Origin: a virus | Reading direction: 5' to 3' (one strand) | UHGV virus genome: UHGV-1526745 | DNA: 57,022 bases | Shown here: one piece after another, positions 38,697 through 50,500 of the stretch | How the letters are laid out: each line of letters begins with the position of its first letter | How positions within the stretch are numbered: position 1 is the first letter of the stretch | Position numbers and translations under genes: made by a program | Notes under the pieces: model-generated | The model's database searches: none | Seen by the model: only the letters and a program-made list of their open reading frames with translations | Told to the model about the DNA's origin: nothing

Positions 38697-38873
38697 TTAT
38701 TCTTGATTCTCTGTTTCGTTCAGCCTTTCGGCGTGTCCAGCCCTTAGCAAGCGATCTACGCATTCGTTGCACTCGTTACATTCTCCCTTCTTCGTGCTGC
38801 ATACACTGCACATTGCACGCATGACACTTTCCCGTTCATAGTCGTCATGCCATTGGTAATTCTCAAAAGACAT
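38697..38873 (-). CDS. small Cys-rich protein (58 aa)
   Basis: Manual translation MSFENYQWHDDYERESVMRAMCSVCSTKKGECNECNECVDRLL...; below track cutoff. Confidence 0.25.
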   Translation of the reverse strand: MSFENYQWHDDYERESVMRAMCSVCSTKKGECNECNECVDRLLRAGHAERLNETENQE

Positions 38874-39033
38874 AATGCTCTCTCCTTTTTCAGGTGATTT
38901 TTACGCATTTCAGCGTTACCGGATTTTTAAAGAGCATTTTGTTTGTTTGAAGTATACAAAACGGATACATGCGAACAAACAATAAAGCGCCATTATGTGA
39001 TCCGCATCACACAATGACGCCATTTTGTAAACA

Positions 39034-39798
39034 TCAATCCGGTAAAACGCGGTTAAGAGTAGTCCGCGTGATTGCCCGGTCATTAGCCAGGAATACAGCA
39101 CGGGCGAATCCTCGCGGCGTGAGTGAGCGGATCATCTTAGTGCGCTTCGACTTCCCGCCTAACTTCGCGTGCTGCTTACTATCTTCCCACTCATCAGGCA
39201 TTGGTACAGGCCGAAATAGCGGCTGTTTAAATCCGTTGCCGCACCAGATACAAGTTTTCTTCGTGTAGGCGTCGCGGTCGGCGATGTATTCCGGGAAAGC
39301 TGGATGCTTATCATCTTCCGGCAGGTAGCCACCGTAAGCGCACGGATTAAAAATGAAATCCGGCTTACGCCATAACGTTGACAGTGCTCCAACCGGGTTT
39401 TCCACCATCCACGGGACGTGGTACATGTCAGCAAGCGTTTCTACCAGTTTTGCGTTGTATGCCGCCTTCTGCTGGAAGTAAGGATCTTTTTCACGCTTGC
39501 TTGAAAACCAACGAGCGCCGGACACCGCAAGATCGTCGCACGGAGGAAAGCCCAGGATAATGTCAGGATCTGGATAAACAGACAATTCAGGGGAGAACAT
39601 TACCAGGAAATGGCTGTCAATCCATACGTTGACATATTCAATGTTAGGATGAATGATCTTGACGCCTTCATAATCGCCATGATTAGCGCCGTCATAATTG
39701 AAACAATAACACTTATAGCCAGCGTCGGCCCAATCTTTAACGGCGTACCCGCTGCCGTCGTACAGCGACCACACCACCCAATTTCTAAGCCCACTCAT
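39034..39798 (-). CDS. putative DNA C5-cytosine methyltransferase-like protein
   Basis: Motifs LYDGSG, GFPPCDD and MVENPVGAL resemble C5-MTase motifs I, IV and VI. Confidence 0.5.
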   Translation of the reverse strand: MSGLRNWVVWSLYDGSGYAVKDWADAGYKCYCFNYDGANHGDYEGVKIIHPNIEYVNVWIDSHFLVMFSPELSVYPDPDIILGFPPCDDLAVSGARWFSSKREKDPYFQQKAAYNAKLVETLADMYHVPWMVENPVGALSTLWRKPDFIFNPCAYGGYLPEDDKHPAFPEYIADRDAYTKKTCIWCGNGFKQPLFRPVPMPDEWEDSKQHAKLGGKSKRTKMIRSLTPRGFARAVFLANDRAITRTTLNRVLPD

Positions 39799-40370
39799 TT
39801 CCTACCCTCGAACGTAAAATAGCGACGAATGATGATAGTGATCACCGTTACAGCCGCCATTTTTGAGATGAATTGCATAGCTGATATTTCCGGCATAAAT
39901 GCCATAAACGATAGCGTGGGAAAAATTAACGCATCACCAATGGCGGACGCTATATTCGCAGGCCAGCGTTTTGAATCGAAATCGCCAGGTAAAATCCGGT
40001 AAACACCGCCAGAAATAAGCGCACCGGAAACAACCGCGACGAATGACGCGATCGCCACCATCCCGGCATCGTAGTTTATCAGCACCGTGATTGCGCCAGC
40101 GGCGGCGCATGTTGTAGCCGACCATTTCAGGCCGCCGTCATATAACAGGAAGTCACGGATCATCATATTGACGCACACGGCGGCTACCGTGGTGATCGGA
40201 ATTACCCACGGGCCGCAGTGGTTAACAATAAGGTTAATGATCACGAAAACGGCGACATAAATGCAGGCCAATAACCTGTCAATTGTCACCCTTTCCATTT
40301 TTATGATACCCCGCCGCGCGTAGTAGTGATTCGTTATCACACTTACCATCAAGCCTGTTTGCAAGGACAC
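39795..40370 (-). CDS. hypothetical polytopic membrane protein
   Basis: Track ORF; several hydrophobic segments. Confidence 0.45.
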   Translation of the reverse strand: MSLQTGLMVSVITNHYYARRGIIKMERVTIDRLLACIYVAVFVIINLIVNHCGPWVIPITTVAAVCVNMMIRDFLLYDGGLKWSATTCAAAGAITVLINYDAGMVAIASFVAVVSGALISGGVYRILPGDFDSKRWPANIASAIGDALIFPTLSFMAFMPEISAMQFISKMAAVTVITIIIRRYFTFEGRK

Positions 40371-40436
40371 TATTTAGCGTTACCTTGCTGCTGGCGATTA
40401 AGTCGCCTGGTATTGAGGCATTCTTACAGCCGCAAT

Positions 40437-40769
40437 TTAACGGTATATCAAAACAGCCCGTTTCTTTCTTTGGGCTTCCTCCCGCTCCGTTAATATTTGC
40501 TCCGCTTTTAGCGCGTTATAGCTAATCAAATCAATTAGCGTGTCTGTCGGATCTGATTTATTGCTTAAAATGGCCTCTAAACGCGCCTCCTTGAGACAAA
40601 TTAGCAGATCCCATACATCAAGCGGGGTTAAATCTGCTCCCTTCTTAGCGTTGTAAATAGTGGCTATTTTTGGCGCTGATTTTTCCTCTTTTTTGTCGTA
40701 GCCGTTTTGTTTACCTCTTTGCTCTATGGTTTCCGCTGCAAGTCTCAATAAATCTGCTGCCTTAGTCAT
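40437..40769 (-). CDS. hypothetical protein
   Basis: Track ORF 40437..40787; internal ATG chosen. Confidence 0.4.
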   Translation of the reverse strand: MTKAADLLRLAAETIEQRGKQNGYDKKEEKSAPKIATIYNAKKGADLTPLDVWDLLICLKEARLEAILSNKSDPTDTLIDLISYNALKAEQILTEREEAQRKKRAVLIYR

Positions 40770-41301
40770 TATCTGCACCTCTTGCATATAGCTCTTTACG
40801 TGTTATCTGCGTGAAAATACATTCATGTCTGCACCGTGGATGCCAGATCAAGAACAAGCTCCCCTTATTGTTTCCGCTTGCTGGTTTACCCGTCGCGGCA
40901 TTAATAAACGCCAGCCGCCCGCGCGTGATTAATCGGCATTCATTTGCCGTCTCCACGCCGTTCATAAACCAACTAACAGAAGTGTCGGCTGGCAATAACA
41001 TTACACAGCCAATATGATTTCGGTGGTGTTCAAACGCCGCCTTATCAACGAATGGTCCCGGATTAGAATATGGTGGATTCATCCAGACATATTCACCAGG
41101 CATCGCCACCGCTCCCCACGGGTAATTAAGCGTGTTCATTTCTTCGGTTATATATCGCGGAACTAATGCATTTGCCTTGTTTGCCGCCACGTCCGCGACG
41201 AATTCGAATTCCCGATCCATTCCTCTAAAAACAGGTTTCGGCGTCTGCCATAGGTCTTTTATTTCTTTCGGCGTATGACTGCCGCCGTAATCATTTTTCA
41301 T
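40762..41301 (-). CDS. phage-type DNA N6-adenine methyltransferase (Dam family)
   Basis: NPPYS catalytic motif; 179 aa. Confidence 0.8.
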   Translation of the reverse strand: MKNDYGGSHTPKEIKDLWQTPKPVFRGMDREFEFVADVAANKANALVPRYITEEMNTLNYPWGAVAMPGEYVWMNPPYSNPGPFVDKAAFEHHRNHIGCVMLLPADTSVSWFMNGVETANECRLITRGRLAFINAATGKPASGNNKGSLFLIWHPRCRHECIFTQITRKELYARGADND

Positions 41302-41311
41302 TGCGTCCCCC

Positions 41312-41545
41312 TTAGAAATAATCCTGCTCCGTCCCCCAGCGGTTATTCAGATACCCCACCAACCACACAAAACGCTCAATGCTGATTAGCGGGGCGACCT
41401 TGCGATAATGCTTGTCGAGTATCAGCCGCGTGGCTTTATCGCTGTAGCCGTTCTTCTCTACCTCCGCTTTGCAGGCCGAAAGCGCGGCGCGGGCGGCAGT
41501 CTTTACGGCGTTAAATTGCGGCTCTGACATATTGAATAAGGCCAT
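41312..41545 (-). CDS. hypothetical protein
   Basis: Internal start of track ORF 41312..41704. Confidence 0.35.
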   Translation of the reverse strand: MALFNMSEPQFNAVKTAARAALSACKAEVEKNGYSDKATRLILDKHYRKVAPLISIERFVWLVGYLNNRWGTEQDYF

Positions 41546-41549
41546 AGGA

Positions 41550-41786
41550 TCACCATGTGTCAGTCCAATCCGGCGCGGCAGTCCAGCAAAAACCAATGAA
41601 TGCGCTAACAGCCAATAAAGCGCGGGCTGCAAAAAGAATATTCCCAATGTCGTTAAATTCAGGAAGCGACCACGTAATAAACATAGCCCCCAGCATAATA
41701 ACACCGATAACAGTCAGGGCCGCCAGGAAAACAAAAAGCGTAGCCAAAAGCCACGCCCCCAACCAGTTAAAAAAGCTCTTAAGCAT
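41550..41786 (-). CDS. hypothetical membrane protein
   Basis: Internal start (MLKSFFNWLGAW...); two TM segments. Confidence 0.4.
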   Translation of the reverse strand: MLKSFFNWLGAWLLATLFVFLAALTVIGVIMLGAMFITWSLPEFNDIGNILFAARALLAVSAFIGFCWTAAPDWTDTW

Positions 41787-41787
41787 T

Positions 41788-41991
41788 TTAAACGTCCTCA
41801 ATTACCCCGCCTTTCACGCGCTCTTTAATATCCCATACGTGAGGCTTGCATATTTCTTGATAGTAGTGATCCGGCCTGCTGCCGAAATACCATTTGCCAT
41901 CCATATAAAAATAAACGCCAGAAAAATTTCCTGGCGCTGCCTTTGTTGCTGCTTCTGGAATTTTCCATTCCATGTAATGTTTAAATTTCAT
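41788..41991 (-). CDS. hypothetical protein (67 aa)
   Basis: Track ORF. Confidence 0.35.
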   Translation of the reverse strand: MKFKHYMEWKIPEAATKAAPGNFSGVYFYMDGKWYFGSRPDHYYQEICKPHVWDIKERVKGGVIEDV

Positions 41992-49056: not shown

Positions 49057-49444
49057 CCAACCACGATTCGCAAAAATCCAAAATTACCCACAAAACAACC
49101 TCACCAGCGAGCTAAAACACGCATGGTGCTACGATTGCATATCTTTAGCTATTTAGCTCGTTATAGAGCGTTTTAGAGAGGATTTTAAAATGGACGGTAA
49201 ACACGTTTTCGCCCTGGCCTTTGCCATCGCTGCTGCAATCGCTGTTAACGTCGCTTTGTTCGGCGGTTTGTTCCTTCTTATCAATCCATAACCTTCATAC
49301 CAGCCTGTAAATCAAAAATTAGCCACCTGAGAGCGCCTCTGACGCAATAAGACACTGCAACCTGTGCAAACGGGTTACGCGGTGGGATTTTTGCGTTGTA
49401 GCACGTCTGAGGCGTTATATATAAAATTAAGAAAAGAGGTACAT

Positions 49445-50500
49445 ATGATTGCCACTTATCATGTGAAACTAAATTGTAAGGACACGCAATTACTATCTGT
49501 TAATAATCTTGTTTCTGAACTTGAAATCGATAGGCTTAAATCATTTGTTAAATACTCTGATCTTTACGGATTTGAGGAATACAAGGATTTTATTATTGAT
49601 GGTGATGATGTGTATATCACACCTATAACGTTTATTAGATTCGTTACACCTGGTAAATATAGACATTATGAATATAATGAAAATTGGGTTAAGCCAGTTA
49701 TTGAATCTTGTGGATTAGTTGATTTACAAGATGTGTTTAATAAATATTCAAATAATACCAGAAAAGATAGTCCTTATGCTTATAATTATGTTTTATGGTG
49801 TAACAACTATGTTGAAACTAGTGATACTCCCGGGCGATGCTCTGTGTATGTGTCAAAGGAAGATGCTGAAAAGTATAAAAAATGGTTGTTCGTTACTCGC
49901 GGAGTATCAATAGAAAAACTATGGGTAAGGTTGTTTCATTCAAGCGATATTGCAGATCCAGATACGTTTTTAAATGAACATCTTAATAATGATGAGTTTA
50001 CCATTGATTTAAATATTGAATATTTTACAGTTAAAACAAATTATGGATATGAAAGATATATTAGCGATAAGATAGCGGAAAAGTATCATACATGGGGTCA
50101 AAATAAAGGTCTTAGTAATAATTTTGAATGCGGTAATTATAACGACATAGAAAACTTTATTGAATTAAAAAGCGACAAGAATGTAATTGAGGAAATAAAA
50201 AGGGAATGTGACGAGAAATTATCAGAAATGAGTTATAATTGTAAAAATATGATTAGGAAGCGTTATGAACATGCTGGATTAACTATGTACGAAAAACTAA
50301 AAGGAGTTAAATTAATAAGGCAATATCCTGTTAATGTTGCTGGCAACAAGTATTTTATTGATGGCTACGATCTTGTGAATAATATTGCTGTAGAAATTGA
50401 TGAATCACATCACAAACGGCAAGCAAAAAGCGATGCGATAAGACAAAAACGCATTGAGGATTATTTGGGGTGCAAGTTTTTTCGTTGTGCTATATCCTGA
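49445..50500 (+). CDS. AT-rich moron protein with C-terminal DUF559/Vsr-like nuclease-type domain
   Basis: ATG after AAGAGG RBS; C-terminus YFIDGYDLVNNIAVEIDESHH...DAIRQKRIEDYLGCKFFRC fits DUF559-type pattern; strongly AT-rich versus neighbours. Confidence 0.55.
   Translation: MIATYHVKLNCKDTQLLSVNNLVSELEIDRLKSFVKYSDLYGFEEYKDFIIDGDDVYITPITFIRFVTPGKYRHYEYNENWVKPVIESCGLVDLQDVFNKYSNNTRKDSPYAYNYVLWCNNYVETSDTPGRCSVYVSKEDAEKYKKWLFVTRGVSIEKLWVRLFHSSDIADPDTFLNEHLNNDEFTIDLNIEYFTVKTNYGYERYISDKIAEKYHTWGQNKGLSNNFECGNYNDIENFIELKSDKNVIEEIKRECDEKLSEMSYNCKNMIRKRYEHAGLTMYEKLKGVKLIRQYPVNVAGNKYFIDGYDLVNNIAVEIDESHHKRQAKSDAIRQKRIEDYLGCKFFRCAIS

Follow-up and report, generated by a model that had tools for sequence, protein, structure and literature searches.

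The virus genome UHGV-1526745 raises the question of whether a protein that has kept the catalytic residues of DNA cytosine-C5 methyltransferases, but almost nothing of their target-recognition domain, still works as a DNA-modifying enzyme. Its gene (minus strand, 39034-39798; 254 amino acids, aa) is the last of four in a compact block within the 57,022-nucleotide stretch of DNA analyzed here, which we call the window, and the first is a gene for a phage Dam-family N6-adenine DNA methyltransferase (minus strand, 40762-41301; 179 aa). A first-pass annotation of the same DNA had described two methyltransferases of different classes that flank a polytopic membrane protein, and had suspected that the C5-like one might be degenerate or need a partner. 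Of this pairing, the Dam-family amino-methyltransferase holds without reservation, while sequence and a structure model point to a C5 fold with its catalytic residues in the second protein. On balance, we consider it probable that the block is co-transcribed early in infection and encodes two DNA-modification enzymes, Dam and a functional minimal DNA C5-methyltransferase, which would leave the phage progeny partly protected. Early phage operons often contain orphan adenine and cytosine methylase genes, and the pairing as such is likewise common in phages, already annotated in close relatives and largely ordinary.

The Dam-family enzyme and its compact C5-like companion

The product of the Dam gene is unambiguous as judged from its sequence. 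It matches Pfam family PF05869 (E 2.4e-52, 177.5 bits with a cutoff of 28.1), with residues 7-175 spanning the whole profile, as well as TIGR01712 (E 7.3e-42, 142.7 bits with a cutoff of 97.05), and it shares 38% identity with the Dam protein of phage T1 (E 1e-33). The NPPYS motif named by the first-pass annotation occupies residues 75-79 (41065-41079), aligns with NPPYS of T1 Dam and conforms to the (D/N)PPY signature. Other traits typical of the phage Dam family are an N-terminal W-x-T-P motif, the orphan status of the gene (PADLOC orphan methyltransferase match, 6.4e-25) and its location in the early region; unlike T1 Dam, the protein is 58 residues shorter at its ends, but otherwise shows nothing notable. 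Its ratio of nonsynonymous to synonymous substitution rates (dN/dS) is 0.06-0.10 against close relatives. The target is most likely the adenine N6 of GATC because characterized phage Dam relatives have this specificity; the HP1 and VT-2 enzymes are among the characterized phage Dam references cited in PMC7556043. GATC sites show no sign of avoidance in the window, with 252 copies compared with an expected 272.

The C5-like protein shows the motifs resembling I, IV and VI that had been noticed in it. The cofactor-binding region (motifs I-III) is represented by a variant of motif I that reads Y-D-G-S-G in the window protein (residues 13-17; DGSG at 39748-39759) and F/Y13-D14-x-S/T16-G17 across the family. 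It is followed by FPPC with the presumptive catalytic cysteine (residues 84-87; 39538-39549), by ENPV (residues 133-136; 39391-39402) and by a conserved block close to the C-terminus, IRSLTPRGFARAV (39094-39132), so that both the Pro-Cys of motif IV and the Glu-Asn-Val of motif VI expected of a DNA C5-cytosine methyltransferase are present. We counted conservation across 61 relatives with 34-58% identity to the window protein. C87, G94, E133, P135, P152, Y178, W185 and P193 are invariant among them, while K180, T182 and R224 are each kept in 60, N134 in 58, P85 in 57 and D61 in 51. These motifs go beyond chance resemblance because Cys87, Glu133 and Pro135 are retained in all 61 relatives. Position 34, whose counterpart in M.HhaI is the cofactor-ribose-binding Glu40 by alignment, is an aspartate in 57 of the 61 relatives and an asparagine throughout the enterobacterial clade, the window protein included.

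The gene also evolves under strong purifying selection by sequence comparison, with dN/dS of 0.040 against the homologue in Escherichia phage MagusPhagus and 0.079 against that of phage mEp021, and so it is no relic in decay. These data do not support the suspicion of degeneracy, and the observation that had been named as decisive against the gene, a catalytic cysteine that is not conserved, is the opposite of what its relatives display.

A structure model of the C5-like protein (predicted local distance difference test score, pLDDT, 84) adopts the fold of a C5-methyltransferase catalytic domain. Its 12 best matches in the PDB are all DNA C5-methyltransferases or the C5-carboxymethyltransferase CmoX, and DNMT3 is the best of them. 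Profile comparisons are fainter and differ with the breadth of the alignment. The single protein found nothing in a PDB sequence search and a broad profile of 61 sequences returned only noise, while a profile of 21 sequences gave a weak match to DNMT3B (E 0.02) and another weak one to M.HaeIII. When aligned directly with the DNMT3A catalytic domain, the 61-sequence profile reached E 4e-4, pairing SLFD with SLFDG and PPC-T-DLA with SPC-N-DLS, and this would tie the N-terminal half of the family specifically to DNMT3. For M.HhaI, hhalign aligned a single sequence at motif IV alone, and we therefore built a canonical comparison profile from 80 viral HhaI-like loci (the M.HhaI and DNMT3A query sequences are identical to PDB chains 10mh_A and 5yx2_A). 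The resulting alignment, although weak (E 0.049), is collinear and pairs C87 with C81, E133 with E119 (ENPV with E119-N120) and position 34 with E40, and IRSLTPRGFARAV falls on motif IX (RKLHPRECARVM). C87 is also aligned with the PC motif of DNMT3A.

The protein departs from canonical enzymes mainly in what lies between these motifs. The first-pass annotation had remarked on the apparent lack of a large target-recognition domain, and in fact only ~35 residues (188-222) separate the strand at residues 182-187 from the conserved block at 223-235, compared with ~100 in M.HhaI. This segment is modeled partly with low confidence (pLDDT 56-66) and contains a conserved KLGGKS-x-x-TK stretch, so that no variable target-recognition domain of the kind found between motifs VIII and IX is present. 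Unlike M.HhaI and M.HaeIII (PF00145), which have 327-330 aa, the 254-aa protein also has no PF00145 match, no recognizable QxRxR or GN(S/A)V and no partner restriction enzyme. It ends ~20 residues past R-S-L-T-P-R-G-F-A-R-A-V, a stretch that aligns to motif IX of HhaI and also resembles a merged IX/X. Compared with the catalytic domains of DNMT3A and DNMT3B, it is ~30 residues shorter, has no recognizable motif X and, in a low-confidence alignment, K180 and T182 in place of Arg790 and Arg792; identity to these enzymes is only 13-16%, which supports common descent at the level of the superfamily only. CmoX (PDB 8yf3; PMC12783734) in turn is a full-size protein of >330 residues with a recognition domain, while the phage protein is compact, has no CmoA or amide ligase neighbor among the reading frames scanned or in the annotations of relatives, and does not let the position of the diagnostic CmoX arginine (HhaI N304) be mapped from the alignments.

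An early block of four genes

The window belongs, by sequence comparison, to a temperate coliphage of the mEp021/mEpimmI group. The stretch from 38800 to 41800 is 92% identical at the DNA level to MagusPhagus and 84-87% identical to phages mEp010, mEp013, mEp021, mEp044, mEp515 and mEp554; the mEp phages are Nus-dependent temperate coliphages that form part of the mEpimmI group (PMC11893012). GenBank describes the corresponding mEp021 genes as encoding a putative DNA N-6 adenine methyltransferase and a putative DNA cytosine methyltransferase, with a hypothetical protein and a putative membrane protein of six transmembrane domains between them, and at matching positions in MagusPhagus two genes are labeled "DNA methyltransferase".

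All four genes are tightly packed on the minus strand in the order Dam, DUF6378, membrane protein and C5-like. The flanking arrangement proposed earlier was thus right about the six-helix membrane protein, but the methylase genes enclose two genes rather than one because the DUF6378 gene (40437-40787) had been missed. The Dam stop codon overlaps the DUF6378 start, and the stop codon of the membrane protein gene overlaps the C5-like start by 4 nucleotides (ATGA). A terminator-like hairpin on the minus strand (38986-39021; 16 pairs and a T-rich tail) begins 13 nucleotides past the C5-like stop codon, matches the position of mEp021 TERM_4 and closes the operon segment. Upstream of the block, a terminator-like hairpin on the same strand (41734-41760) lies where mEp021 has TERM_3, and a second one (41914-41938) coincides in position with another annotated mEp021 terminator. 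The upstream and downstream hairpins bracket an Ipe-like open reading frame (ORF) together with Dam, DUF6378, the membrane protein gene and the C5-like gene. The order of the four genes is retained on a metagenomic contig from a distant relative whose proteins are just 52-66% identical, and we count this retention, the bracketing hairpins and the overlapping frames in favor of a co-transcribed block.

The placement in the early arm proposed by the first-pass annotation is confirmed by the surrounding genes, with Erf, anti-RecBCD-like and Ipe-like genes upstream of the block and NinF/NinG, RusA and the Q antiterminator downstream. In the mEp phages, nutR2 has been placed a short way downstream of the gene for the putative cytosine methyltransferase (PMC11893012). 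These observations support the location of both methylase genes within an early, antiterminated operon segment. Directly upstream of Dam and within the same hairpin-bracketed segment, the ORF at 41312-41545 (minus strand) is homologous to ipe ("inducer of pleiotropic effects") of mEp021 and has a match to PHROG 303 (function unknown).

The membrane protein (minus strand, 39795-40298; 167 aa) likely starts at the ATG at 40298, which corresponds to the start in MagusPhagus and is close to that in mEp021, and has only 12 detectable homologues, all within the same phage group. Its model shows six helices with moderate confidence (pLDDT 72) in an arrangement like the S components of energy-coupling factor (ECF) transporters, which are its top solved membrane-protein folds, and BFVD yields a single high-probability match, to a viral "Putative vitamin uptake transporter". 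For three members of the family the top Pfam match is Vut_1 (PF02592, the YhhQ family), always below the gathering score of 27.2 bits. The window protein scores 12.9 bits (E 0.15) and its relatives P0129 and P0124 reach E 5e-4 and 0.89, respectively (20.8 and 10.3 bits); the matches of the window protein and P0124 are collinear over nearly the whole profile, while that of P0129 covers only profile positions 58-149. No NCBIfam model matched at E<=1. Like YhhQ/Vut_1 proteins and ECF S components, the phage protein has six transmembrane helices in ~170 aa, but E. coli YhhQ is ~50 residues longer. Taken together, sequence and model make it probable that the protein transports small molecules as a remote member of the Vut_1/YhhQ family with an ECF-S-component-like fold. 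Proteins of this family take up queuosine precursors, and YhhQ homologues also occur in some phages (PMC6884629); the gene described here would be a further example of phage-borne genes for the uptake of small molecules.

The DUF6378 gene encodes 116 aa on the minus strand and matches Pfam PF19905 (32.2 bits with a cutoff of 27.1) with its domain intact at residues 13-96. Its homologues are longer, with 165 aa in mEp021 (mEp021_31) and 170 aa in MagusPhagus. A T-run around 40446-40451 reads TTTT in the window as opposed to TTTTT in MagusPhagus, which shifts the frame and leads to a stop at 116 aa. Either a genuine mutation or a sequencing error in the homopolymer could account for the shorter run, which leaves ~138 untranslated bases before the membrane protein gene. 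In the distant relative with the conserved gene order, the protein has only 99 aa, which shows that the variable C-terminal tail is dispensable. Searches for a solved relative or informative literature on DUF6378 returned none.

The C5-like family and what its members may do

Beyond this phage group, the C5-like protein belongs to a large family with 2367 matches in a database clustered at 90% identity; at 50% identity there are 1278 representatives, and almost all of these are 210-260 aa long. Members are encoded in 1516 of 50,697 phage records (~3%) and on 244 plasmids, and the carriers include Drexlerviridae, Jersey-like and Kagunavirus phages, Dhillonvirus, rV5-like phages, 9NA, many Klebsiella siphoviruses and Arthrobacter phages. 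Ten longer members (292-453 aa), one of them on a 2-kb contig, have no Pfam domain in their extra parts. Phage T1 had been considered as an experimentally studied carrier, but it has Dam without a C5-like gene. Similarly, the idea that P1 Dmt represents a fusion of Dam with a C5-like protein found no support, since P1-like phage D6 has a separate member beside a D12-class adenine methylase and P1 is absent among the best family matches.

Most members of the family adjoin helicase, primase or unrelated genes, and a methylase partner in cis is thus not required. A minority sits directly beside an amino-methyltransferase gene in unrelated lineages, namely Klebsiella phage GZ7 (PF05869), D6 (PF02086) and Arthrobacter phage Daob (PF01555), and the recurrence of such neighbors from three Pfam families supports a role in DNA methylation and keeps a looser idea of a "methylation cassette" alive. 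At these three loci (L087, 2270-3848; L088, 89-2148; L089, 974-2268), the C5-like gene overlaps the adjacent amino-methyltransferase gene by 4-8 nucleotides. At another (L086, 518-2682), a 228-aa member abuts the gene of the large terminase subunit directly upstream, in the usual place of the small terminase subunit.

From its fold and invariant residues, as seen in sequence and model, we infer that the 254-aa protein is a functional minimal DNA cytosine-C5 methyltransferase. In the mechanism that we propose, Dam would methylate adenine N6, by analogy with its relatives likely at GATC. In the C5-like protein, Cys87 would attack C6 of a flipped cytosine while Glu133 of the Glu-Asn-Pro motif protonates N3, and the methyl group would come from S-adenosylmethionine held by the F/Y-D-x-S/T-G loop, by Asp61 and by position 34, which is an asparagine in this protein and an aspartate in most relatives. 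Being almost devoid of a target-recognition domain and most similar to DNMT3, the enzyme probably reads a short site that conserved basic loops (K180, KLGGKS, R224 and R229) might contact, perhaps as a dimer. Both enzymes would then mark replicating phage DNA before packaging and partially protect it from mark-sensitive restriction enzymes, while the two genes in between, for DUF6378 and the Vut/S-component-like transporter, are most likely accessory, independent of the enzymes and carried along with the block in this phage group.

Several observations weigh against this proposal. The only sequence model that matches the window protein is PHROG 757 "DNA methyltransferase" (1.2e-87); it matches nothing in Pfam (E<=0.1) or NCBIfam (E<=1) and no PADLOC methyltransferase model. 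PF00145 is matched at E<=0.01 by only two of the 61 relatives; three close relatives do exceed its threshold (24.7-28.5 bits with a cutoff of 22), although only over profile positions 4-94 with motifs I-IV, and this we count in favor of the proposal. Neither QxRxR of motif VIII nor a separate motif X (GN[SA]V) is recognizable in the alignments. Low-confidence alignments instead put T182 on the second motif VIII arginine (HhaI R165, DNMT3A R792) and K180 on DNMT3A R790, and in the HhaI alignment PQKRER falls on the non-conserved LPEDDK. A literature search found no experiment and no biochemical or methylome data on the ~230-aa family. Drexlerviridae are rich in N6-adenine and C5-cytosine methyltransferases, and the BASEL study saw no simple relation in this group between carrying such genes and resisting restriction (PMC8594841). 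The genome itself points to incomplete protection because many six-base palindromes are still avoided, being strongly under-represented across the window relative to Markov expectation; AAGCTT occurs 0 times with 10.4 expected, CCGCGG once (20.6), GGCGCC once (19.5) and GCCGGC once (11.4). CCWGG, like GATC, is not avoided in the window. Finally, strain W3110 is McrBC+/McrA+, and relatives of this phage have been propagated on K-12 W3110; growth on such a host argues against dense methylation of purine-C sites.

The missing elements would be readily explained if the C5-like protein were catalytically dead or unable to act alone, either as a DNA- or cofactor-binding relic or as a subunit that needs a partner such as the neighboring amino-methyltransferase to find DNA. 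The absence of a discrete target-recognition domain, a recognizable QxRxR, a separate motif X and matches to curated methyltransferase models all fit this explanation, as does the position of the gene beside or near an amino-methyltransferase in four lineages. However, the nucleophilic cysteine and the Glu-Asn-Pro motif are invariant, the aspartates that bind the cofactor are conserved, dN/dS is as low as 0.04-0.08, and most family members lack a methyltransferase neighbor, so that the partner suspected by the first-pass annotation is not something that the data call for. DNMT3, the best structural match, moreover functions with a very small recognition region. We thus regard a dead or dependent protein as unlikely. 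It is more improbable still that the enzyme is active but makes another product, e.g., by transferring a carboxymethyl group from host-made carboxy-S-adenosylmethionine as CmoX does or by acting on RNA as DNMT2 does. CmoX-like carboxymethylation was considered, and no CmoA, amide ligase or ParB-domain neighbor was found among the scanned ORFs of the window or in the annotations of relatives; in addition, it is a conserved phenylalanine, and not an arginine or lysine, that aligns next to G230, and the recurrent neighbors of the family are DNA methyltransferases and replication genes.

The conservation of the whole block could also mean that its four genes form one pathway, in which the Vut-like transporter imports a base or cofactor precursor that DUF6378 and the methylase-like enzymes use for DNA hypermodification. 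The retention of the block down to 52-66% protein identity, its overlapping reading frames and the queuosine-related role of Vut_1/YhhQ proteins and their phage homologues would be in line with this idea, to which we nevertheless attach very little probability. All 12 homologues of the membrane protein come from the same phage group, so that shared ancestry can explain the linkage, and the C5-like family occurs in ~1500 phages without a Vut-like transporter. A 7-deazaguanine pathway behind the YhhQ-like gene was considered as well, but no DpdA/TGT-like enzyme is encoded in the ten scanned window ORFs of 197-517 aa or annotated in MagusPhagus and mEp021, and Hutinet et al. found phage YhhQ homologues to be uncorrelated with DNA-modification genes (PMC6884629). 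For these two reasons, we treat the membrane protein gene as an independent accessory.

Two DNA-modification enzymes acting side by side thus remain our preferred explanation. A bolder extension, which we put forward as a tentative possibility, is that the ~230-aa family represents the smallest natural DNA C5-methyltransferase, a DNMT3-like minimal core that reads a very short or degenerate site and provides broad anti-restriction cover; a similarly speculative part of it is that this core would need neither a discrete target-recognition domain nor the canonical motif VIII arginine nor a separate motif X. For this phage alone the finding is routine, given that GenBank already labels the genes in mEp021 and MagusPhagus. 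The family as a whole, however, is abundant in phages and plasmids, has no curated Pfam or NCBIfam model and is apparently uncharacterized. Should the family be active despite its scant recognition machinery, it would define minimal requirements for DNA C5 methylation and affect how phage methylomes, sensitivity to type IV restriction and anti-restriction are interpreted.

Other genes of the window

Near one end, the window encodes a primase/helicase-associated DUF3987 protein (plus strand, 1181-2734; E 1.5e-95), and near the other a tyrosine integrase (minus strand, 55591-56838). A 378-aa ORF on the plus strand (49364-50500) stands out by its low G+C content (0.316 compared with 0.456 for the window) and is absent from the gene order of MagusPhagus. 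A DUF559 (Vsr-like nuclease) domain lies at its C-terminus (E 1.4e-4), PADLOC matches a short part of it to a type II methyl-directed restriction enzyme (2.4e-7), and the ORF may be a nuclease or defense gene inserted amid replication genes.

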